64,000 bases of DNA from Patescibacteria group bacterium (GCA_018817085.1 JAHIUT010000038.1:9441-73440), one strand, 5' to 3'; shown: positions 3,476 to 59,822, numbered from the stretch's first letter. Numbers and translations: made by a program. The notes: generated by a model from the letters alone, not told the origin.

Positions 3476-4417
3476 TCATTCCCAAGTGTACAATTTTGAT
3501 AGAGGTTTGGATTTTCCAAGTTTTGTTTGAGGAGTTTTTTCCAGTATATACAAATCGCTTGTGTTCCCTACCGTTTCCGCTCCTTTTATGTACTTATTAA
3601 AGTTTTGGGTTTTTTCTCTTATAAAAAGTCCGTATTGGTTTATTATTTGTTGAACTTTTAACGATTTTTCTCTTGATAAAGGGGATGTGCCGTAACAAAT
3701 GTAGTGTGAGGATAATCCGTTTTCTTTGGTGGCTTCCAAACTTCTTCGCAAAAAAAGGTCAAATCCGTTTTCGGTGTATGGCGAGTCGGTAAAAACGGTA
3801 TCCGACTTATGCAAAAACTCTTTTGGAATAGCCTTTTTTAAATCCCACAAAACATAATTTATTTTTAAGCGATGTTCTTTACACACCTTTTCAATAACAT
3901 TAAGTATGTTTGTATCGATTTCAAGAACGGAAATATCGCAAGCTCTAAATGTGTAAGCTACGGCTAGAGATGTTAAATCGTCGTCCCCAAGAAAAACTAT
4001 TTTCCTATCTTGTAAATCTTTCTGGCCATTAAGCTTTTTTACGCGATTTATAACGGTTTCTTCCGTGGCGTAAAACTGGTCGTATTCTCTTTTTGGGACG
4101 GGCATTAAACTTTTTATATGGCGAATAAAATCTTGGATACCTTGCAAGTTAAAAGGTGGTTCTTTTTCAGATTTTTCGGAAAGAAGCGTTCCTCCCATAT
4201 TGGTGAGCGTTAATCGCGGGGAGGCCGTATTGTAATTGACAAATTTGGGATTTAATAACAAAACTAACCTTTTCATTTGCCCATGCGAAAGGTTGGTTAT
4301 TCGGGTAAGTTCCGAAACGGTGGGAGTTTGGGTTTTAATTATTTCAATAATGTTTATTATATCCGTTACTCGTATTTTGGATTTTCTGGATATGTTGTCC
4401 AAATTGGGAGTATTCAT
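3476..4417 (-). CDS. BpsA/DUF43-like aminopropyltransferase (putative long-chain/branched polyamine synthase) with N-terminal HTH-like region
   Basis: 313-aa ORF with a GDDDLTSLA motif characteristic of DUF43/BpsA aminopropyltransferases and a Rossmann-like segment. It is convergent with speH, so the pair gives a polyamine pathway context. Confidence 0.5.
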   Translation of the reverse strand: MNTPNLDNISRKSKIRVTDIINIIEIIKTQTPTVSELTRITNLSHGQMKRLVLLLNPKFVNYNTASPRLTLTNMGGTLLSEKSEKEPPFNLQGIQDFIRHIKSLMPVPKREYDQFYATEETVINRVKKLNGQKDLQDRKIVFLGDDDLTSLAVAYTFRACDISVLEIDTNILNVIEKVCKEHRLKINYVLWDLKKAIPKEFLHKSDTVFTDSPYTENGFDLFLRRSLEATKENGLSSHYICYGTSPLSREKSLKVQQIINQYGLFIREKTQNFNKYIKGAETVGNTSDLYILEKTPQTKLGKSKPLSKLYTWE

Positions 4418-6262: not shown

Positions 6263-7396
6263 TATTCCAGATTAATAACGCCTCCAAAAGATAAAAGCTT
6301 CTTTTTGTTTGGTCCTCGCGGAACCGGAAAAACAACTTGGGTAAGAGCCACTTTTCCGAAAGCAGTATATTTAGATTTATTGGAAGCGGAGGTATTTAAC
6401 ATTTTATTAGCCAATCCGCAAAGGTTGGAGAACTATATACCAAAAAACTTTACCGATTATATTATTATTGATGAAGTACAGCGAATTCCCGAAATACTAA
6501 ACGAAGTACATCGTTTAATTGAAAAAGAACGTCTTAAATTTATCCTCACTGGTTCTAGCGCTAGAAAATTAAGAAAAGGCGGGCAGAATTTGTTAGCGGG
6601 CAGAGCGCTTACTTATTTTTTGCACCCATTAACAGCGGTGGAACTTGGTACTGATTTTAATCTTAAACAATCTTTAAATTATGGGCATCTCCCCTCTATA
6701 AATAAAGAGAAAGATCCCCAAAAATATTTGGAAAGTTATATTAAGACTTACCTTGAGGAGGAAGTTTTTCAAGAAGGACTAACAAGAAATCTTTCCGTTT
6801 TCGCCCGTTTCCTGGAAACAGCAAGTTTCTCTCAAGGGTCGATTTTAAATACATCGGAAGTAGCAAGGGAAGCGGCTATTAATAGGAAGGTGGTGGAAAA
6901 TTATTTTAAGATTCTTGAGGATTTGTTAATTGGATATCGCATCCCTGTTTTTAATAAAAGGGCGAAAAGGAGACTTCTTGCTCATTCTAAATTCTATTTT
7001 TTTGATGTGGGTGTTTATAAGGTATTGCGTCCGATGGGTCCTTTGGATATGCCTGAAATGGTAGAAGGTATGTCTTACGAGAGCTTGTTTTTTCAGGACA
7101 TCCTTGCTATTAACAGCAGTTTGAATTTAGGGTATAAGCTTTTTTATTACCGAACCGTAACAGGAATAGAAGTTGATTTTGTAATGTATGGAGAAAAGGG
7201 AATTCGCGCTTTTGAAATTAAAAGAACCAACAAAATTTCCTCTGATTTAACTAAGGGTCTAAAATATTTCTCTAAGGAATATCCTCAATCAAAAAGTTTT
7301 CTTATCTATGGAGGAAAAAGAAAAATGAGCGAAGGCAATATTGAAATATTGCCAATTGAATACGCTCTTAAAAACCTTCCCGAGTTGCTTATTTAA
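6260..7396 (+). CDS. AAA+ ATPase (AAA_14/DUF4143 family, uncharacterised)
   Basis: Walker A FLFGPRGTGKTT and Walker B IIIDEVQRIP. Domain architecture and length (378 aa) are typical of the DUF4143 ATPase family. Confidence 0.7.
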   Translation: MYSRLITPPKDKSFFLFGPRGTGKTTWVRATFPKAVYLDLLEAEVFNILLANPQRLENYIPKNFTDYIIIDEVQRIPEILNEVHRLIEKERLKFILTGSSARKLRKGGQNLLAGRALTYFLHPLTAVELGTDFNLKQSLNYGHLPSINKEKDPQKYLESYIKTYLEEEVFQEGLTRNLSVFARFLETASFSQGSILNTSEVAREAAINRKVVENYFKILEDLLIGYRIPVFNKRAKRRLLAHSKFYFFDVGVYKVLRPMGPLDMPEMVEGMSYESLFFQDILAINSSLNLGYKLFYYRTVTGIEVDFVMYGEKGIRAFEIKRTNKISSDLTKGLKYFSKEYPQSKSFLIYGGKRKMSEGNIEILPIEYALKNLPELLI

Positions 7397-42698: not shown

Positions 42699-42819
42699 TT
42701 TATAAAATTACCACAGTTTGCGCTTTTATACAAGGATATAAGAAAAAAGCAAATCCATTAGGGTATAAACCCTTCCGCCAGCTGGCGGAGGGTTTAACCC
42801 TTAATTACAATGTCCAAAA

Positions 42820-42852
42820 AGGGACTACCCCGATTCGGGGTAGTCCCTTTTT
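42820..42852 (-). terminator. Rho-independent terminator hairpin GGGACTACCCCGATTCGGGGTAGTCCC with flanking A/T tracts (bidirectional)
   Basis: Perfect 11-bp stem, AAAAA 5' and TTTTTT 3'. It is directly downstream of the Lon-like ATPase stop. The same stem sequence recurs at 57226. Confidence 0.75.
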
Positions 42853-42853
42853 T

Positions 42854-51551: not shown

Positions 51552-52748
51552 TTGGTCTATACTTTATTTAGTATGTTTAATCCTCTTTCTTTAATAAGAA
51601 AAAATAAGCGCAATAAAAGTTTTTTGGCTATAGATTTGGGTTCTTCACTAATTAAAATAAGCAGGTTTTCCTTTTTGCCGGACAATCGGCTTTTGCTTGA
51701 AGATATTTCCACCGTAAACACACCCGAAGGCGCGGTTGGTTTGGGAGTAATTACCGATTTAGATTCAACCTTTGAAGCTTTAAAAAGTTCTGTTTCTCCT
51801 TATGATAATGTTATTTTTGGTCTTTCCGGCGAAAGTGTTTTTGGGTTCGCCACTACGGTAAAAATTAAAAGACCCGCTTATGACGAAAAAATTTCCAGCG
51901 GGGAATTAAATGAAATAATAAAAAGAATACAAGAACTTGCGTTTATTGAAGCGGGTCAAATTCAATTATCCAAAATAGGTTGCGGAGAAACGGATATAGA
52001 AATGGTTAACTCCGCGGTTATCTCATCCAAAATAGATGGCGCGTTGGTTGAAGATGTTGTTGGAAAAGTTGGCAAACACATAGAAATAGGTCTTTTTACA
52101 TCTTTTGCCGAGAAGAGTGTTTTGTCGGGTCTTTTAGAGCTTTGCAAGAAATTAAAAATCAATTTCACCGCCGCTAGTTCTCAAATGTATTCCTTATCAA
52201 AATTGTTATGCGCGAACCAAAAGGGTACTTTTAACGCCGTTTTAATAGATTTTGGCGGCGATAAAACGGATGTGGGGATTTGTTATGGCGGAGGTATTGT
52301 GGCCACTAAAACATTGGATTTTGGCGGCACTCAACTTACAAAGGAAATAGCGGCAATACTTGATGTGGCGCTTAACGAAGCCGAGAAAAAGAAAGTATCT
52401 TACGAAGAAGGAACATTGGGGGCGGAGCAGATTAAAGAAATTACTTCAAAAGTTTTAAATTATTGGCTTGCGGGTATAGAAACAGTTTTAGAAAATTTTG
52501 AGGGTATTAAAGTTTTCCCGCCTAAAATTTTTATATTTGGGGGCGGGGGGTTAACTTATGATTTAATGCGGGTTTTAAAAGAACGGAGCTGGTACGAGAA
52601 CTTTCCGTTTAAATTTGTTCCCGAAGTGGAAATTGTTAGCATAGAAAAATTGTCTGATATAATAGAAGACCCTAACGGGTTTTTGAAAGATTTGCGAAAT
52701 ATAGTTCCTGTTTCTTTAGGTTTAATTGGTTTAGAAATTTTTGGTTAA
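51552..52748 (+). CDS. Actin-like ATPase of the FtsA/PilM family
   Basis: FLAIDLGSSLIKISRF (phosphate-1), VLIDFGGDKTDVGI (phosphate-2) and IFIFGGGGLT (adenosine motif) give a sugar-kinase/actin fold. There is no adjacent ftsZ. Confidence 0.5.
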   Translation: MVYTLFSMFNPLSLIRKNKRNKSFLAIDLGSSLIKISRFSFLPDNRLLLEDISTVNTPEGAVGLGVITDLDSTFEALKSSVSPYDNVIFGLSGESVFGFATTVKIKRPAYDEKISSGELNEIIKRIQELAFIEAGQIQLSKIGCGETDIEMVNSAVISSKIDGALVEDVVGKVGKHIEIGLFTSFAEKSVLSGLLELCKKLKINFTAASSQMYSLSKLLCANQKGTFNAVLIDFGGDKTDVGICYGGGIVATKTLDFGGTQLTKEIAAILDVALNEAEKKKVSYEEGTLGAEQIKEITSKVLNYWLAGIETVLENFEGIKVFPPKIFIFGGGGLTYDLMRVLKERSWYENFPFKFVPEVEIVSIEKLSDIIEDPNGFLKDLRNIVPVSLGLIGLEIFG

Positions 52749-52750
52749 AA

Positions 52751-54217
52751 ATGCAAAATATTATTGTTAACAAAACGGATGATTTATATACTTTAGCCGA
52801 AGGTATGCGAGTTTGCGAAGATACGGAGGTTGTTTTTGTTGTTTCACCCGATATCTTATTCTTGCGAAACCCACTGTCTTTCAAATTTTTGGAACGATAT
52901 GCCGAATCTTTTGGGAAAAAGATTTCTTTTGTTAATGAAAAAAACGAGGCGCTTTCTTTTGCGGAACCTAAATCTTTTGAAGATGTTCCAAAAGTTGAAA
53001 AGGAAGTTCCGAAAGCGAATCTTGCGCCAAAGACGGAACTGTCCGCTATAATAAGAAACTCTATTGGTATAATAGGCGCTCTTTTATTGTTGATAGGAAT
53101 TGGGGTTTCTGTTTGGTGGTTTTTTCCAAAAGCTAATGTAGTTATAAAAACTAACTCTGAGATGTTGGTTAAAAATGTGGATATTACGGCAAATGTTTCT
53201 GCTAATGGTGTAAACGAGAGCAATAAAGAAATTCCCGCGGTTTTGTTGGAGACGGTTAGGAAAGCAAGCGACACAATACAAGCTTCGGGAGAAAAAGAGG
53301 TTGGAGAGAAAGCAAAAGGAACGGTTACGGTGTTTAATAAAACCATCAGTAAAAAAACTTTTGGAAAAGGCACTAAACTAATTTTAATCTCCGCTGAAAC
53401 CGAAGATTTAAATTATTACTCTTTGGAAGAAGTTACGATTGAAGAAAGACAAGACCTTGCTGGAGGCATTACTTACGGTTCCGTGGAAGTTGAGGTTGAA
53501 GCCGAAAAGTATGGTTCTAACTATAATATTAAAGAAGACCAGAAATTTGAAGTGGACGACCACGATACTTCCGATTTCTTGGCTCAAAACGCAGAGGTTT
53601 TTACGGGCGGGTCTAGCAAAATAGTCCCCGCGGTTTCCGAGAAAGATAAAGAGGCGCTAAAAAGTACTTTGGAAGAACGATTAAGAGGCAATGTTAAAAC
53701 CGATTTGGAACTAAAACTTGTGGGGGAGCAAAAAATAGCCGAAAATTCAACAGGTTTTGAAACTTTTGACGAGGTGTTTGATAAAAATGTGGGTGATGAG
53801 GCGGACAAGTTAAATTTATCTTTGCAGGTTAGAGCGTATGCTTTAGCGTATTATCAAAATGATTTGGAAAATGTTGTTAAAAGTGTTTTAGAAAGGTCTA
53901 TTCCGGAACAATATTCGCTTGCGGACACCGAAACTCGTTTTGAAATAGGAGATGTGCTTGCCGATAAGCCTACCCCGTTATCCAAAGATAAAATAAGTTT
54001 GTTGGTTAAGGTTAGAAGTTTTGTGGTTCCAAAACTAAATGTGCAAGAGGTTAAAGACAATTTAGTAAATAGAAGTATTCTTGACGCTACAAAATATCTG
54101 GACGGGTTAAAAAATATAGCTTCTTATGAGTTTACCGTTTGGCCTCGTCTTCCGGGATTTTTGAGCGCAACGCCTCATATTAAATCTCGCATACAGGTTG
54201 AAATTAAAAACGAGTAA
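52751..54217 (+). CDS. Bitopic membrane protein (N-terminal cytoplasmic ~110 aa, one TM, large extracytoplasmic domain), partner of the FtsA/PilM-like ATPase
   Basis: TM IIGALLLLIGIGVSVWWFF. 3-nt gap after the upstream ATPase. No family recognised; possibly PilN/O-like. Confidence 0.4.
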   Translation: MQNIIVNKTDDLYTLAEGMRVCEDTEVVFVVSPDILFLRNPLSFKFLERYAESFGKKISFVNEKNEALSFAEPKSFEDVPKVEKEVPKANLAPKTELSAIIRNSIGIIGALLLLIGIGVSVWWFFPKANVVIKTNSEMLVKNVDITANVSANGVNESNKEIPAVLLETVRKASDTIQASGEKEVGEKAKGTVTVFNKTISKKTFGKGTKLILISAETEDLNYYSLEEVTIEERQDLAGGITYGSVEVEVEAEKYGSNYNIKEDQKFEVDDHDTSDFLAQNAEVFTGGSSKIVPAVSEKDKEALKSTLEERLRGNVKTDLELKLVGEQKIAENSTGFETFDEVFDKNVGDEADKLNLSLQVRAYALAYYQNDLENVVKSVLERSIPEQYSLADTETRFEIGDVLADKPTPLSKDKISLLVKVRSFVVPKLNVQEVKDNLVNRSILDATKYLDGLKNIASYEFTVWPRLPGFLSATPHIKSRIQVEIKNE

Positions 54218-54220
54218 ATT

Positions 54221-54607
54221 ATGGCAAAGGTTTTGGGCATTGATTTTGGAAATTCGCGAATTGGACTTGCGTTGGGGGAAAAAGAGTTAGCTACTCCTCT
54301 TAAAATCATCAATGGAAAAAACTGGCACACCGTTTTGCAAACTATTAAAAAAATTATTGAAGAAAATCGCATTTCGTATATAGTTTTAGGTATTCCTGAA
54401 AAAGAAACAATCGGTGTTAATAAATTCGGGGAATTTTTAAGAGACAATATAAATACGCCTATAAAGCTTTTTAACGAGGATTTTACCTCAAAAGAAGCTT
54501 TGGAATATTCTATCCAAATGGGGTATTCTAAAAAGGGCCGAAAGTATTTGGATGATGTTTCGGCTTGTATGATTTTGGAAAGGTTTTTTGAAACCTATGA
54601 AAATTAA
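54221..54607 (+). CDS. ruvX: Holliday-junction resolvase-like YqgF/RuvX (pre-16S rRNA nuclease)
   Basis: MAKVLGIDFGNSRIGLALGE... with the RNase H-like YqgF signature. 128 aa. Confidence 0.8.
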   Translation: MAKVLGIDFGNSRIGLALGEKELATPLKIINGKNWHTVLQTIKKIIEENRISYIVLGIPEKETIGVNKFGEFLRDNINTPIKLFNEDFTSKEALEYSIQMGYSKKGRKYLDDVSACMILERFFETYEN

Positions 54608-55580
54608 AATTAAATTGCCACATTGGAAATTTTTGACCGTCGTTTTGCTATTTTTAACGGCTTTTGCGGTTTTGTATTCTTTGGGGGTGAAAAGAGCCAA
54701 CCGCTACGACTTGGGAAAAGAATCTTTTAAAGAGGTTGTTATAAACAAAGGAGCTTCAGTGGAAGAGATTTCAAAAATATTGGTTAGAGAAGACTTAATA
54801 AACTCGCGCGCTTTATTTAAATTATATGTGTATATTAGTAATAAAAGTCTTCAGGCGGGGAATTTTTATGTTCCCACGAACATAAGTGTGGTGGAGTTGG
54901 CTAATCTTTTGGGTAAAGGGAGTTTTCAGAAAAAATACACTTTTTTAGAAGGTTGGCGCGTGGAGCAGATGGCAGAGCTTTTGCCTAAAGATGTCCAAAA
55001 CGAGTTTCTTAAAAGCTCTTACACTAAAGAAGGGTTTATGTTTCCCGACACCTACTTTTTTCTGGAAAGCGCAATTGGGGAGGAAATTGCCCAAACTTTA
55101 AGCCAGACTTTTGAAGATAAAATAAAAGTTTTTGACAAGGAAATCAAGGCAAGTTCCCTTTCTTTGGAGGAGATTGTTATTTTAGCATCTATAATTGAAA
55201 GAGAAGCTAAAAGTTTTGATGAGAAGGCGACAATTGCTGGGATTTTGGTAAAAAGGTACCAAAACGGATGGCCTTTGCAGGCGGACGCTACTATTCAGTA
55301 CGCCAAGGATTTAAACGCCTTTACTTGCGCATCTTTATCCGACTGTGTTTGGTGGCGTCCGCTATTTGCCACAGATTTGGATATAGAGTCCTCTTATAAT
55401 ACATACAAATATGCGGGGTTACCTCCAACACCGATATGCAGTCCCGGACTGGAATCTATAAGGGCGGTTTTGGAGTATAAAGAAACCCCATATTGGTTTT
55501 ATTTAACGGGAAACGATGGGGTAACGCGCTTTTCCGAGACGGTAGAAGAGCAAACGGCTAATATACAAAAGTATTTGTAG
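54588..55580 (+). CDS. mltG: Endolytic murein transglycosylase MltG (YceG family)
   Basis: N-terminal TM and YceG-like domain (KKYTFLEGWRVEQMAELL; FMFPDTYFF; ASIIEREA). The 3' end lies inside direct repeat R1. Confidence 0.8.
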   Translation: MKPMKIKIKLPHWKFLTVVLLFLTAFAVLYSLGVKRANRYDLGKESFKEVVINKGASVEEISKILVREDLINSRALFKLYVYISNKSLQAGNFYVPTNISVVELANLLGKGSFQKKYTFLEGWRVEQMAELLPKDVQNEFLKSSYTKEGFMFPDTYFFLESAIGEEIAQTLSQTFEDKIKVFDKEIKASSLSLEEIVILASIIEREAKSFDEKATIAGILVKRYQNGWPLQADATIQYAKDLNAFTCASLSDCVWWRPLFATDLDIESSYNTYKYAGLPPTPICSPGLESIRAVLEYKETPYWFYLTGNDGVTRFSETVEEQTANIQKYL

Positions 55581-55638
55581 AACGATAGAAGCGTTTGTTT
55601 TTAGGGGGTCGTATCCCTATGAAATTGGATTTGTCGAT

Positions 55639-56448
55639 TCATTCTAATGGACTTTTGACATTTTTAAGTTTGGGATTAGTTACTTGCGTATAAAGTTGAG
55701 TAGTTCTAATGTTTTGATGTCCTAATAATTCTTGCACATACCGCACATCGACGCCATTTTCCAAAAGGTGGGTAGCAAAGCTATGGCGCAGACTATGAAA
55801 AGTGGCATCTTTTTTAACGCCAGATTTTTTAAAGGAATTTTCAAAAACTTTTTGAGCGGTTCTTGTGGTCAGTTTTCCACCCCGCTCACTTGAAAACACA
55901 AAATCGTTTTTTTCTTTGCCGGCAATAAGGTTTTGAATATCTGCTGATAACTTCTCTGGAAAAACACTAATTCTGTCCTTTTTGCCTTTTGCCTGCTTAA
56001 TATGAATGGTCAATTCATGAAAATCAATGTCTTGCGCTTTTAGGCTTATTGCTTCACTAACGCGTAATCCAGCGCCATAAGCAAGCGATAGAAGTAATTT
56101 ATGCTTCGTGTTTTCGGTTGCTTCAAGGATTTTTTCTATTTCACTCCTTGAAAGCACTACGGGAAGGCTTTTATTTTTCTTAGCTGATCGAATTTCTATT
56201 TTCTCATTTGTGATGTTGCGATAGTAGAATTTAACCGCATTCAGAAGCAGGTTTCTTGTTTCTGCCGATACGCCTTTCTTTTCGCAAAACAGTAGAAAGT
56301 CTTTGATGTTATCTCTATCCAATATTTCAAGATTATCCTTTTTATAAACAAAATATTCCTTGAGTCCGTAAAGGTAACTTTTTATGGTTTTGCTACTGTA
56401 ATTGCGGATTTTTAATTCCCGTTCTGTTTGCCCTAATTGTTGTTGCAT
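55639..56448 (-). CDS. Tyrosine-type site-specific recombinase/integrase (XerC/D-like)
   Basis: C-terminal catalytic motifs HSLRHSFATHLLENGVDVRYVQELLGHQNIRTTQLYTQV (R..H..Y). N-terminal SAM-like core-binding domain. 269 aa. Confidence 0.8.
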   Translation of the reverse strand: MQQQLGQTERELKIRNYSSKTIKSYLYGLKEYFVYKKDNLEILDRDNIKDFLLFCEKKGVSAETRNLLLNAVKFYYRNITNEKIEIRSAKKNKSLPVVLSRSEIEKILEATENTKHKLLLSLAYGAGLRVSEAISLKAQDIDFHELTIHIKQAKGKKDRISVFPEKLSADIQNLIAGKEKNDFVFSSERGGKLTTRTAQKVFENSFKKSGVKKDATFHSLRHSFATHLLENGVDVRYVQELLGHQNIRTTQLYTQVTNPKLKNVKSPLE

Positions 56449-56469
56449 AATTGTTTTATTTTGGTAAAA

Positions 56470-56746
56470 TAAAAACAGATCTAACTTGACTAGAGATTAA
56501 CATGTGTTCGTATAATACGCAATTTAATGATGATATTATGAAAACACTTCGCCTAAAAACGAGTTAGCCAACATCGCTGCGCTTGTTGGCTAATGTGTTG
56601 CGGATTCGCTGTTGCCTCGTCGCTTCGCGACATCGGCTAACAGCGGGATATACGAAATTTTTTCCCGCTTCGCAGGAAAAACCTTCGTATCATCCGCAAC
56701 ACATTATGTGCCATCCATCTTTTATTATTTTTATGAGAGGAGGTGA
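56470..56746 (+). promoter_or_regulatory. Structured noncoding region inside the mini-element, with nested inverted repeats
   Basis: TAATGTGTTGCGGAT...ATCCGCAACACATTA is a 15-bp inverted repeat about 90 nt apart. Inside it are TTAGCCAACA..TGTTGGCTAA and CGCTGTT..AACAGCG. Confidence 0.5.
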
Positions 56747-57016
56747 GTGAATGTGAAAAAAACAAAGAAACCTTGGTTGGCCGCAATATTAAACCTTATT
56801 CTTTCCGGTGTAGGATATATTTATAACGGCAAGAGAGTAGTTTTTGGTGTGCTTATCCTAATTTCATCAGTTATCTCTTACATTGTTGAGGGTTCTGACC
56901 TTGATATCTTAAGTTCTGAAGTAAAAGTTATCGCAGTTACCGCATATCTTGTTATGGCTATAGCTTTTTCTTACGATGCATATCGGGAAGCAAAAGAGAT
57001 AAACGAGGGGGAATAG
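56747..57016 (+). CDS. Small two-TM membrane protein (89 aa), cargo of the mini-element
   Basis: PWLAAILNLILSGVGYIY... and ...AVTAYLVMAIAFSYD. GTG start per the ORF track. The preceding GAGAGGAGGTGAGTGAATGTG suggests an RBS plus a start codon nearby. Confidence 0.4.
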   Translation: MNVKKTKKPWLAAILNLILSGVGYIYNGKRVVFGVLILISSVISYIVEGSDLDILSSEVKVIAVTAYLVMAIAFSYDAYREAKEINEGE

Positions 57017-57221
57017 AATAAAAGATGGACAGCGCATAACACGGGCTATACGGAAAATTTAAAACAATTTTCCCAAATCCTGCTAAAATCGGAGCAGGAC
57101 TTCGTATAGCCCGAAACGTTGTTCGAAATAATGTGGTAACGCATTTTTCCGAGACGATAGAGGAGCAAACGGCTAATATACAAAAGTATTTGTGAGAAAA
57201 AAGAGTTGCCAAAAAGGGACT

Positions 57222-57261
57222 ACCCCGTCCGCCAGCTGGCGGACGGGGTAGTCCCTTTTTT
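57222..57261 (+). terminator. Rho-independent terminator: GGGACTACCCCGTCCGCCAGCTGGCGGACGGGGTAGTCCC + TTTTTT
   Basis: Perfect long stem immediately after the orphan mltG 3' copy (R2). It shares the GGGACTACCCCG stem module with the 42820 terminator and the CCGCCAGCTGGCGG core with 42767..42790. Confidence 0.75.
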
Positions 57262-57325
57262 AATCCTCCCGCGAGACCCCATACACATGATTGCAATTTG
57301 TGTGTTAATAGAATAAAGTAAAAAT

Positions 57326-58258
57326 GTGACGCGAAAAGAATATTTTCAAGTTATTTATGATGGGTCTGCCTTAAAATCTAACGAGATGGATGTAAGGGAT
57401 TTGGCTCCTGCTCTTCTTGCCATAAGCGACATTCTAGATGAAGCAAATAAAATAACCAATGGGGATAAAACAAAAGTTCAAGTAAATGTAAAAGGCTCAT
57501 TTAAAACGGGATCCTTCAGAATTGACTTTTCTTTAATTCAGGGCGGAATTGATGGTCTTACTTATCTTTTTAATTCAGAACAAGCTAGCGCGGCAGCAAA
57601 CTTACTTCAGATCCTAGGCTTTATTGGGGTGCCAAGCACCTTCGGACTTATTGGGCTTTTATTAAAGTTAAGAAATCGTAAGATTAAAAAAGTGGTAAAA
57701 GAGGGGCACAATAAAACTGTTATAGAAGTTGAAGATGAGAAGATTGAAACCCACCCAAAAGTAATTGCCTTGTTTTCAAATGTTAAGATTAGGATTGGAT
57801 TACAAAAAATTATTACGGAACCATTGTCTAGGGAGGGCGTAGAAAGTTTTAGTATAAAAAAAGGTGGCCAAGTTAACACAGTAAAAACCGAAGAAAAGGA
57901 TTACTTTAAACTATCAGACATACCAGATGAACCACTTAGAGATGGGGTAAGAGAGGTCTATTTGAGAGCGTTATCTGTTATTTTTGTTGAAGGGAACAAA
58001 TGGAGATTTAGCGATGGAACTAATGAGTTCTATGCTACAGTTAAAGATGAAAAATTTGTGAAAGATGTGCAGGAAAACAAAATTTCTTTCACGAAAGACG
58101 ATACCTTCAAAGTAAAATTAAGAGAGAAACAATGGATAACTGATACGGGACTTAAAACAGAACATGAAATAGAAGAAGTTATAAGCCACCGTTCTGTAGC
58201 AAAACAGATTAAATTGCCTTTTGAGGAAAATGAAAAAGACACTAAGCAAAAAGGATAA
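57326..58258 (+). CDS. Hypothetical protein (310 aa), no recognised domain
   Basis: GTG start per the ORF track; alternative Met at MDVRDLAPALL. Possible hydrophobic segment GFIGVPSTFGLIGLLLKL. Adjacent to the integrase mini-element. Confidence 0.4.
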   Translation: MTRKEYFQVIYDGSALKSNEMDVRDLAPALLAISDILDEANKITNGDKTKVQVNVKGSFKTGSFRIDFSLIQGGIDGLTYLFNSEQASAAANLLQILGFIGVPSTFGLIGLLLKLRNRKIKKVVKEGHNKTVIEVEDEKIETHPKVIALFSNVKIRIGLQKIITEPLSREGVESFSIKKGGQVNTVKTEEKDYFKLSDIPDEPLRDGVREVYLRALSVIFVEGNKWRFSDGTNEFYATVKDEKFVKDVQENKISFTKDDTFKVKLREKQWITDTGLKTEHEIEEVISHRSVAKQIKLPFEENEKDTKQKG

Positions 58259-58437
58259 AAAAAATTAAAGTGGGGAATATAGATTACACTTTTTGTATTT
58301 TGGGGTGGGCTGTCCCAAGAAGTGGGACAACTGAAGTTAAAATCTTTGACTGGGCAAGCGTCCACAACGGAAATATCTAAAAAGAAAAAAGTGCCAAGTG
58401 TTTTCAGCAACAAGTGGCGCTTTGTGGGTGGAGTAGG

Positions 58438-58932
58438 CTAGTCGGTAGCGTTGAGGTCTTCCAACCACACCTTAAAAGACTCCGCCAGCAATTCGCAGAT
58501 TTCATCCGCATCCTTTCCCGGTTCTGGACAGTCTTTGCAGTACACTGCAATAGATCTATCCGCTCTGGAATTGTCTATTTTTTTCTCATCCGTTCCCCAA
58601 GGGAACAGAACAGCAACGCTTCCTGCTCCTTTGTTGAAAACAAGTCCCCAAAACCACATATACTTGTCATCTGTTGTGGGGCAAAGGATTTGTTTGTATC
58701 CCGCTACCCTTCTTCCGCTCTCTTCCAAGCACTGTCCATTGAAATTTGTAGTTCCACTGTCGTATAGTCTATTTAGCTCCTCTATAGCTTTTGGGAAATA
58801 AGGAAAGCCAAATCCCGCCAGTTCTGCTGTCGGATGTTTTTCCAAACTCATTTTACCGCTCCTTTCTCTTTGGGAGGATTTTATTAGCAACTCAACAGTT
58901 GCTTTGGCTGTTATTAAAGGAAATTTTAGCAC
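58438..58932 (-). CDS. Hypothetical protein (164 aa), weak resemblance to SMI1/KNR4 (SUKH) immunity-protein family
   Basis: ...FGFPYFPKAIEELNRLYDSGTTNFNG... resembles the SUKH ...NGg motif region. Low confidence. Confidence 0.3.
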   Translation of the reverse strand: MLKFPLITAKATVELLIKSSQRERSGKMSLEKHPTAELAGFGFPYFPKAIEELNRLYDSGTTNFNGQCLEESGRRVAGYKQILCPTTDDKYMWFWGLVFNKGAGSVAVLFPWGTDEKKIDNSRADRSIAVYCKDCPEPGKDADEICELLAESFKVWLEDLNATD

Positions 58933-59069
58933 AAGGGAGATAAGAAGTAAAGACCATGCAGGAAATATCAGTTTAATTGGAATTTCATTGGGGTGCGGAC
59001 CCCTTCGGGGTACCGACCCCTAAAACAATTACCCTTTGAAAAAGATAAAGACTTTGTTAAGATGGTATT

Positions 59070-59822
59070 ATGATATCCCTGTCCAAAATATCCACAAACG
59101 GTAAATTTATGTTTTTAGCTTACGACCACGGCTTGGAACACGGTCCCTCCGATTTTAATGATGTAAATGTAGACCCTAACTATATTCTGGACATTGCCGT
59201 CAAAGGCGGTTTTAGCGCTGTTATCCTTCAAAAAGGCATTGCCGAAAAATATTATGCCCCCTCAAAGAATAATGTTCATTTAATTATTAAACTCAACGGT
59301 AAAACCAATCTTGTTGAAGAGGAACCTTATTCCGCTCCGTTGTGTACGGTGGATGAAGCTATAAAACTAAAAGCTTCCGCGGTTGGCTATACCTTATATG
59401 TTGGTAGTAAGTTTGAGAGTATGATGTTTAAAGAGTTTGGCAGAGTGGTGGAGGAGGCCCATTCAAAAAACATTCCTGTTATAGCGTGGATGTATCCGCG
59501 GGGGAAAGCGGTAAAAGGTAGAGAAGATTCAAGAGAAATTTTGGCTTATTCGGCAAGAGTTGGTCTTGAACTGGGAGCGGATATCTTAAAACTTCATTAT
59601 GCGGGCAATGTCCTTGACATGGAATGGGTGGTAGAAAGCGCTGGAAAAGCAAAAGTTGTTATTTCTGGAGGAATGAAAGAATCGGAAAAAGAATTTTTAA
59701 AGGACTTAAAAGACGCTATGAAAGCAGGATGTTCCGGAGTAGCGGTGGGGAGGAATGTTTGGCAGAGAAAAACCCCCCTGCCTTTTGTTAATGAGATTTA
59801 TGGAGTAGTAATGTGTGGATAG
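59070..59822 (+). CDS. Class I (Schiff-base) aldolase of the DhnA/FbaB family (archaeal-type fructose-bisphosphate aldolase-like)
   Basis: 250-aa TIM-barrel with ADILKLHYAG (Schiff-base Lys region) and a phosphate-binding GRNVWQ tail. Confidence 0.6.
   Translation: MISLSKISTNGKFMFLAYDHGLEHGPSDFNDVNVDPNYILDIAVKGGFSAVILQKGIAEKYYAPSKNNVHLIIKLNGKTNLVEEEPYSAPLCTVDEAIKLKASAVGYTLYVGSKFESMMFKEFGRVVEEAHSKNIPVIAWMYPRGKAVKGREDSREILAYSARVGLELGADILKLHYAGNVLDMEWVVESAGKAKVVISGGMKESEKEFLKDLKDAMKAGCSGVAVGRNVWQRKTPLPFVNEIYGVVMCG

Follow-up and report, generated by a model that had tools for sequence, protein, structure and literature searches.

A probable integron-like gene-cassette platform in the 3' end of mltG of a Patescibacteria group bacterium

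The archaeal integrons described in 2022 carry the IntI-specific domain in their integrases (PMC9668308), and the authors of IntegronFinder counted recombinases without this domain near attC sites as non-IntI and discarded them (PMC4889954). A 'Cand' subgroup of Xer-related recombinases from candidate phyla was reported by Smyshlyaev et al. in 2021 (PMC8138268). In the searchable literature, whose coverage is incomplete so that a paper may have escaped us, we found no description of cassette arrays or integrons in Patescibacteria, also known as the Candidate Phyla Radiation (CPR). Here we analyze a 64,000-nt stretch of DNA from a Patescibacteria group bacterium (GCA_018817085.1, JAHIUT010000038.1:9441-73440; hereafter the window), in which a tyrosine recombinase gene and two small cassette-like units lie between two copies of the last codons of mltG. 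We consider it probable that this locus is an integron-like mobile platform seated in the mltG tail and composed of a Xer/IntI-like recombinase, a dif-like attI site and a cassette array. Judged by its attI, its attC array and the behavior of its cassettes the system would be integron-like, while its recombinase fails the test of the integrase domain by which integrons are defined.

According to our proposal, positions 55579-57193 would constitute a small mobile platform that integrated in the last 20 codons of mltG and brought its own copy of that tail. The recombinase gene (55639-56448, minus strand) would face the attI site TTCGCCTAAAAACGAG↓TT (the arrow marks the point of exchange), and circular single-gene cassettes would enter and leave at G↓TT. 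Each cassette would terminate in an imperfect palindrome (R''..AAC, stem, inner hairpins, stem', AAC-G↓TT), which, as covariation and strand asymmetry suggest, most likely folds as single-stranded DNA (ssDNA) and mimics a double-stranded site. The array of this strain would comprise a unit without an open reading frame (ORF) at 56564-56703 and an 89-aa membrane-protein cassette at 56704-57118, with siblings holding others behind the same attI. The features of the locus, in window coordinates, and the predicted junctions are as follows.

54588-55580, plus: coding sequence of mltG (YceG family; Pfam), whose last 20 codons form direct-repeat copy 1
55510-55578, plus: direct-repeat copy 1 (attL-like), with clear homology from 55520 and an exact 31-nt core at 55548-55578
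55581-55638, no strand: 58-nt spacer from the mltG stop to the integrase stop, element-borne and absent from the native mltG end in the related contigs L096/L097
55639-56448, minus: tyrosine recombinase of 269 aa, XerA/IntI-like, without the IntI-specific insertion (Pfam, NCBIfam, PDB)
56486-56565, plus: attI-like region (family consensus, contig ends, sibling contig L086)
56507-56516, plus: attI box 1, TTCGTATAAT, a possible -10 element, with TTGACT at 56486-56491 and a 19-nt spacer
56548-56565, plus: attI box 2, TTCGCCTAAAAACGAG↓TT, with the putative crossover between G56563 and T56564
56564-56703, plus: cassette 1, ORF-less, 140 nt, a 'Type A' folded site, ending CACA56703↓TT
56588-56594 and 56635-56641, plus: outer R'' box GGCTAAT and inner R'' box GGCTAAC of Type A
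56704-57118, plus: cassette 2, 415 nt, with the 89-aa membrane-protein ORF (56747-57016) and an attC-like 'Type B' site
57032-57125, plus: Type B attC-like site, with R'' GCATAAC (57034-57040), L'' (57042-57053) and inner hairpins around CCCAAAT
57103-57113 and onward, plus: right side of Type B, with L' (57103-57113), spacer AAAC and R' G57118↓TTGTTC
57119-57134, plus: presumed original attI right arm and 5 nt, TTGTTCGAAATAATGT, the element-side flank of copy 2
57125-57195, plus: direct-repeat copy 2 (attR-like), the displaced native mltG 3' end, with TGA at 57193-57195
57196-57205, plus: native flank after copy 2, GAAAAAAGAG, shared with L096/L097
Predicted cassette-2 circle junction: ...TATAGCCCGAAACG↓TTATGTGCCATCC...
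Predicted cassette-2-less junction: ...CCGCAACACA↓TTGTTCGAAAT...
Predicted platform-circle attP junction: ...GAAATAATGTGGTAACGC..TATTTGTAGAACGATAG...
Predicted empty attB junction: ...GATGGGGTAACGC..TATTTGTGAGAAAAAAGAG...

Cassette gain and loss are visible among sibling contigs. An identical integrase adjoins mltG on three further contigs (L001, L002 and L003), whose similarity to the window stops inside or just past the self-complementary stretch. L001 diverges just past the attI junction (about 56600, in cassette 1) and continues with three genes, two of which encode an N6/N4 methyltransferase and a DUF2130 protein, and L002 is window-like to 56707, the cassette 1/2 junction being at 56704, and continues with a UDG-superfamily gene. 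Contig L086, from the same assembly as L001, reads ...CAACACA↓TTGTTCGAAAT..., i.e. window positions 56704-57118 are precisely missing and cassette 2 is absent exactly from A56703↓TT to G57118↓TT. On L084 a different ORF is joined at G56597↓TT, after which the contig is 99.99% identical to the window. All strain-to-strain junctions have A or G directly before TT, and the units gained and lost are discrete, co-oriented and carry one ORF each, as in integrons. An invertible segment around the 89-aa ORF was considered as well and rejected, as the 28-nt inverted repeat there arises from pairing of the cassette start with the R'' box of the same cassette, and the segment is not flipped in the sibling contig.

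That repeat consists of the first 28 nt of cassette 2 (56704-56731), which are complementary to the 28 nt ending in its own R'' AAC box (57012-57039), as is expected of a unit that circularizes at G↓TT. The Type B site at the end of this cassette is the sole match in the 64-kb window (74 bits) to R1, a covariance model which was built from nine terminal hairpins. It scores 73.9 bits on the plus strand and 15.1 bits on the minus strand, and its ssDNA fold has z-scores of -5.1 / -5.8. The Type A site (56588-56707) folds as ssDNA with -46 to -51 kcal/mol (z-scores of -9.3 / -10.7); homologous sites in seven other loci show AAT..ATT / AAC..GTT covariation in the outer stem, and Type A recurs as the first unit behind attI in about 11 loci. 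The strand asymmetry and the ssDNA folds are compatible with folded-strand recombination, and the modelled structures suggest that the substrate may be single-stranded.

In its interior, Type A also harbors an additional point of exchange, G56597↓TT, along with a nested GTTGCC..GGCTAAC hairpin (window 56597-56641; L084 at 262; L001 at 3541-3552). Its inner and outer parts reassort between strains, L001 having a different inner module.

The attI-like site is conserved in most of the recombinase family, which was sampled as 80 of 110 relatives in a collection of species-representative genomes. The consensus tTCG.ATAAaAAC.AGTT stands at the same place in 69 of the 80 family regions, 65-242 nt (mostly 79-160) upstream of the integrase start codon, with a second box, TTCGTATAATAYRCAA, about 40 nt ahead of it. 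Downstream of the GTT the sequences diverge between loci, yet begin TT...GAAAT. Six contigs end 0-2 nt past the attI GTT and one scaffold gap starts there, while the sibling contig L086 begins exactly at T56564. No other place in the 64 kb agrees with the family consensus as well as the attI of the window (56548; 20/26). Together with the cassette start, the family site forms a dif-like imperfect palindrome, TTCGCATAA-AAACNAG-TTATGTGAAAT, which we take to be akin to the E. coli dif site. The integrase is adjoined, as in integrons, by an attI at which cassettes appear to be inserted, and recombination would take place there. The cassette-start consensus TT..…GAAAT is matched by TTGTTCGAAAT, a segment found behind the terminal site of the window, L084 and L086. 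The cassettes may be expressed from a promoter near box 1.

The 80 loci encode integrases that are 56-79% identical and come from many CPR classes (Abawaca-, Roizman-, Shapiro-, Dojka-, Morani-, Nomura-, Peregrini-, Kerfeld- and Saccharibacteria, WWE3 and CPR3); in none of the 80 does mltG adjoin the integrase. Their attC-like sites have the form YTAAC-A-stem-hairpin-CACCCAAAT-hairpin-ACTT-stem'-RAAC-GTTR. Model R1 gave 126 matches in total, with 123 within the 304,661 nt upstream of the integrases and one within the 476,344 nt downstream, and every site lies on the strand opposite to the integrase. At least one site was found in 43 of the 48 loci with more than 1.5 kb of upstream sequence, and up to seven per locus. 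The stems are 90.8% paired, versus 25-38% with slid partners, compensatory changes occur at 13 of 16 pairs, and none of 500 shuffles reached the observed values, although these pair counts come from a model-fitted alignment and lean toward structure. The AAC/GTT boxes are nearly invariant, and the interiors are more conserved and more branched than those of classical attC sites. Neighboring sites are a median of 815 nt apart (74 intervals), and in 65 of 69 cases the longest ORF points the same way as the site. The cassettes code for a variety of single enzymes (SDR, MBL-fold, racemase, isochorismatase, LysE, methyltransferase, NUDIX, HD, hydrolase, UDG and MazG proteins). As in integrons, the arrays are co-oriented, with each cassette ending in an imperfect palindrome with R''/R' boxes of the RYYYAAC / GTTRRRY type. 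A home-made AAC..stem..GTT scanner, which returned 341/309 matches per strand versus 158 in shuffled sequence, proved too noisy in AT-rich DNA and was abandoned in favor of the covariance model.

The whole family is large: at least 4,584 protein clusters (90% identity) match at E<=1e-60, and their annotations are generic recombinase, XerD, or recombinase/integron integrase. The majority of these clusters lie on contigs of 1-2.5 kb, which is consistent with assembly breaks at a variable junction. No relatives of the integrase were found in the viral contigs of IMG/VR.

Distant loci share leaders and site segments that are 80-92% identical, though they have no ORF in common. One such segment is a non-coding cassette-leader module (..GGGGAATATGGTGTTT..CGAAAACGATTTATTTATAAGGGGAA..), located at 3307-3447 of L001 and present in seven other loci, whose copies are 80-92% identical between loci with integrases of only about 60% identity; it may serve in regulation or represent another type of site. 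In L063 (6180-6945) two halves of a Type B site are separated by about 740 nt, with an ORF on the opposite strand (6450-6809) between them, an arrangement that looks like an insertion into the loop of the site.

The seat of the platform in mltG was examined through its direct repeats. The last 20 codons of mltG are indeed present twice, as the earlier note on this DNA had reported: at 55520-55580, in frame with an ORF matching the full Pfam YceG (MltG family) profile (1.6e-68, positions 1-275 of 275), and at 57135-57195 as an orphan copy. A repeat search and an alignment agree on this, and the repeat (55510-55578 / 57125-57193; 69 nt, 90% identical, spacing 1615 nt) is the sole long one in 54000-59000, where the runner-up family is 19 nt. 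The final 31 nt ahead of the stop are identical. Over the 61 nt compared (55520-55580 versus 57135-57195) we count six mismatches, four internal and two in the stop (copy 1/copy 2: 55528 G/A, 55529 C/T, 55542 G/A, 55547 A/G, 55579-80 AG/GA, i.e. TAG>TGA); the seven differences given earlier for these 61 nt fit the 69-nt repeat without the stop codon, while the R>H, V>I and TAG>TGA changes had been read correctly. The tyrosine recombinase (minus strand), the strongly self-complementary stretch and the 89-aa ORF described between the copies are all there.

A scan of metagenome contigs based on MltG yielded two informative sets. Contigs L096/L097 are 96% identical at the nucleotide level to window 52168-55582 and have an uninterrupted mltG with no integrase after it. 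Their mltG ends ...GGGCAATGATGG GGTAACGCATTTTTCC...AAAGTATTTGTGA GAAAAAAGAG, with the stop in ...TTTGTGA; the left flank of the repeat corresponds to that of copy 1 (identical to the L001 allele), whereas the end matches the copy 2 side (94.9% to window 57127-57205), including the TGA plus 10 nt beyond it. Such an attB is what the left of attL and the right of attR would predict. In L099-L102, from a more distant species (MltG 62% identical) with synteny kept on both sides, deoC follows about 70 nt after mltG, whereas in the window it starts at 59070; relative to these empty sites, everything from 55581 to about 58977 is lineage-specific. The comparison with relatives whose mltG is uninterrupted, proposed in the earlier note as a check, therefore identifies copy 2 as the displaced native tail and indicates that the TAG stop and the 58-nt spacer arrived with the element. 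It bears out the claim of an integration at the mltG 3' end with a replacement end: the element is a real insertion that supplies a new end and leaves the gene intact, and the mltG stop TAG (55578-55580) would be element-borne. As in integrative islands, there is a tyrosine integrase at one end, direct repeats of a gene tail and a restored target. Because the two copies in the L001/L086 genome differ at only 1 of 59 nt, the mismatches in the window represent ordinary allelic variation.

For the 58-nt spacer (55581-55638) nothing similar was detected in other family loci, and its GTCGTATCCC-TATGAAAT segment looks like a degenerate site junction. An exact 33-mer across copy 2 and its downstream flank had no matches in JGI metagenome contigs, and exact-protein look-ups of this MltG allele and of the 89-aa protein found none.

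Tyrosine recombination creates no target duplication, thus the incoming DNA must already have held an mltG tail. The same fact favors an alternative in which the mltG tail was duplicated by homologous (Campbell-type) recombination or by a local event, the platform merely lying between the copies; the length of the repeat (59-69 nt), its single mismatch in the L001/L086 genome and the lack of a site-like motif in the repeats fit this course of events too. We regard it as unlikely, albeit deserving attention, since an unrelated second case is found in L063, where a 76-nt, 85%-identical repeat of another gene's tail surrounds the integrase and array. There the orphan copy abuts the integrase stop and codes its own C-terminus and stop, and such cases are typical of attP sites that mimic the target gene. 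In addition, the homology in the window fades into the flanks and has no blunt end. The motif GCAAACG is common to the repeat cores of the window and L063 (only about p 0.05). Flanking repeats were sought in the other loci by blastn, six-frame tblastn and longest exact match, and the remaining candidates were rejected: two were non-coding, four were conserved tRNA arms and one consisted of short repeats.

Subtraction of the cassettes predicts for the window an empty element of about 1,060 bp, in which the integrase and a complete attI (..AACGAG↓TTGTTCGAAAT) would be followed by 5 nt and a 59-nt mimic of mltG. In four loci (L013, L019, L090 and L091) the 3' end of a tRNA-Ser gene is fused to the platform (..CCGCCA↓GTTAGGAAATG...), so that the integrase-side end of the platform looks like a cassette start after G↓TT. 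A short duplicate of a tRNA tail lies by the integrase stop in L074. At eight other loci the integrase TGA overlaps the ATG of a co-directional gene (ATGA), and the platform end seems to coincide with the gene start; by eye, these genes look like housekeeping ones (trmD-like, tsaD-like and U32-peptidase-like N-termini).

The recombinase matches PF00589 (1.5e-45) and PF13495 in Pfam and retains the catalytic residues R129, H218-x-x-R221, H244 and Y253. It exceeds the cutoff of the NF040815 model recomb_XerA_Arch ('site-specific tyrosine recombinase/integron integrase'; 224 versus 220 bits), while its scores against the XerC and XerD models are far under their cutoffs. The best matches among solved structures are near-equal, namely XerA of P. 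abyssi (4a8e) and IntI4 of V. cholerae (2a3v). To XerA it aligns end to end in one stretch, whereas the alignment to IntI4 falls into two, with query residues 177-195 opposite 183-244 of the chain; the roughly 43 residues skipped are at the exact place of the IntI-specific domain.

Such an enzyme raises the prospect that we are dealing with a housekeeping system, in which the recombinase is the CPR dimer resolvase, the putative attI is dif, and the cassettes are hitch-hikers of the integrative mobile elements exploiting Xer (IMEX) type, which use Xer like the folded hairpin of the CTX phage. The XerA model and structure, the dif-like palindrome and the 'Cand' subgroup all agree with this explanation. 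We nevertheless find it quite improbable. A dif site at the replication terminus was rejected because there is no GC-skew switch at the window locus, nor in 15 of the 20 loci with both flanks, so the palindrome is present without the expected switch. The contexts are unrelated: the neighbor is mltG here, and 23 of 76 loci have a tRNA gene, invariably convergent, no more than 600 nt from the integrase stop. A 1002-bp integrase and attI module, which begins at the attI G, spans the integrase gene and ends 71 nt past it at ..CCGCCAG↓TTAGGAAAT, is 100% identical in two contexts with different cassettes (L089 versus L090/L091); its integrase is 94% identical. Finally, 56-79% identity across class-level lineages is high for a vertically inherited Xer protein, and the locus is absent from the close relatives L096/L097 and L099-L102.

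A plain integrative mini-island, in line with the interpretation put forward in the earlier note, would have a phage-type integrase between attL and attR, with the inverted repeats only as arm or core binding sites, the 89-aa gene as fixed cargo, and the whole in decay. The direct repeats, the integrase at one end, the restored gene tail and the empty sites of relatives are all accommodated by it. Nonetheless, it is very unlikely, and as a complete account already largely refuted, given that the cargo varies beside an identical integrase and breaks at exact A↓TT or G↓TT junctions, that folded sites of the same kind occur 123 times in oriented arrays upstream of homologous integrases, and that the integrase is intact with all catalytic residues. 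What had been taken for a decayed element or a minimal cassette is better described as a strain-variable gene-cassette array on a putative integron-like platform. The region dense in inverted repeats does exist, but it contains an attI-like site and an ORF-less cassette consisting of a folded attC-like site, which had been overlooked; the 15-nt inverted repeat within it is real too (56591-56605 / 56692-56706, 100% complementary) and lies inside the Type A site. As an explanation of the folded elements, structures in transcribed RNA (terminators, leaders or small RNAs between genes) are hardly credible. Strong folds and covariation would fit RNA equally and some inner loops resemble stable tetraloops, yet strain break points and contig ends fall on the G↓TT at the base of the structures, each cassette opens with the complement of its own R'' box, which a circularizable unit should show, and no Rfam family matches (in searches of the whole window and, permissively, of 55400-57400, only two tRNAs elsewhere and chance-level hairpin matches appeared).

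The remaining claim of the earlier note, that a strong hairpin downstream of copy 2 is the displaced mltG terminator, does not hold. The hairpin (57211-57260) is a perfect palindrome with 25-bp arms followed by T's, and it cannot be called the displaced terminator because the native sequence shared with the integrase-free relative ends 10 nt past the TGA, short of the hairpin. It belongs to a further strain-variable segment with a LAPAL gene and its neighbor. That segment (57196-58977) is lineage-specific as well: it opens with ↓TTGCC... behind the native GAAAAAAGAG and is found neither in L097, where a MazG-like cassette with a Type B site takes its place, nor in L099-L102. It contains two ORFs (57326-58258 and, on the minus strand, 58438-58932), the first of which encodes a 310-aa protein matching NF053583 (LAPAL-motif putative phage structural protein; 4.6e-78), and the far end of the segment yielded no site. 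Three contigs (L085, L087 and L088) start inside the hairpin. A perfect hairpin at window 42814-42853, AAAAAGGGACTACCCCGATTCGGGGTAGTCCCTTTTTT, shows 100% identity to the form that the post-copy-2 hairpin takes in L085, L086 and L088 and is a repeated terminator-like palindrome.

Several observations weigh against an integron-like platform as proposed above, besides the bias of the pair counts. The recombinase scores 215 bits against the integron integrase model TIGR02249, whose cutoff is 265, and does so in two stretches, and the IntI-specific domain near patch III (intI_Cterm of IntegronFinder; TIGR02249) is lacking. According to the statements in PMC9668308 and PMC4889954 that cite Messier and Roy (2001), this domain is necessary in classical integrases. 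No cassette ORF was found in two different arrays, and a promoter scan gave no consensus promoter directed into the array. Repeats of a gene tail around the platform are confined to this species and L063, with none in 13 tRNA-adjacent loci. The direct repeats contain no convincing match to the family site (best 13-15 of 26, and 269 places in the window reach 15); for want of such a motif, integration into mltG by this same enzyme is only putative. All data are metagenome assemblies, from which recombination itself is deduced. Within the integron-like platform that we favor, the parts hence differ in firmness. The insertion in mltG, the presence or absence of cassettes at exact junctions and the oriented upstream arrays across Patescibacteria are shown by the sequences, whereas a single recombinase would have to catalyze both cassette traffic and mltG integration.

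A wider hypothesis, to which we give about even chances, is that Patescibacteria own a widespread integron lineage with a XerA-like recombinase that never acquired or has lost the IntI domain, a dif-like attI and branched hairpin attC sites, in which an integrase and attI unit of about 1 kb moves by itself as a circle that lands beside tRNA genes or in gene tails. Such a lineage might be an independent invention or an intermediate on the way from Xer/dif to integrons. The family would have been missed so far because IntegronFinder discards recombinases without the IntI-specific domain. If this is true, structure-specific capture of cassettes does not need that domain, and a dif-like attI with a Xer-like enzyme offers a concrete system for testing the origin of integrons from Xer recombination. 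It might also be a main route of accessory-gene exchange in these ultra-small bacteria with reduced genomes, and would explain the frequent assembly breaks about 100 nt upstream of the integrase gene in CPR genomes. In the window itself, a cell-wall gene would have been recoded by a mobile element with its reading frame kept.

Among known systems the locus may first be compared with integrons. In common with them it has a recombinase gene divergent from the adjoining insertion site, an apparent crossover at G↓TT, and co-oriented, mostly single-ORF cassettes of about 0.5-1 kb, among which ORF-less ones occur and whose content varies between strains. At the end of each cassette stands an imperfect palindrome that combines ..AAC / GTT.. 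boxes with an asymmetric spacer and keeps its stem structure while the sequence varies, and the start of the cassette is complementary to the R'' box of the same unit. In contrast to integrons, the CPR recombinase is without the IntI-specific domain of about 35-45 residues, fails TIGR02249 and aligns end to end with XerA. Moreover, attI is a dif-like palindrome, and the interiors of the attC-like sites are conserved and branched (two hairpins around CACCCAAAT, or the larger three-way Type A). The platform itself is apparently mobile, here between duplicated gene tails, and the hosts are CPR bacteria.

With Xer/dif and its IMEX (CTX phage, TLC, the gonococcal island) the system shares a Xer-family recombinase, a dif-like core and recombinase-less units inserted at the site, possibly in tandem, and its folded hairpin of two inverted half-sites recalls attP(+) of CTX. 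It differs in that the site lies off the skew switch and travels together with the physically linked recombinase gene, and in that single-gene cassettes form long oriented arrays. The pdif modules of Acinetobacter plasmids are likewise small accessory-gene modules that are bounded by Xer-type sites and swapped between replicons, but they are flanked by inverted duplex XerC/XerD sites, depend on host Xer in trans, and have no adjoining dedicated recombinase, oriented arrays or hairpin covariation. Islands at the 3' ends of tRNA and protein genes, in turn, resemble the platform in having a tyrosine recombinase by one junction, direct repeats of the gene tail, an intact gene and empty sites in relatives, and the convergent tRNA genes of the related loci recall them as well. 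Unlike these islands, the CPR element measures about 1 kb without its cassettes and has no excisionase or other island functions, and its cargo is a cassette array assembled at a second site, beyond the integrase.

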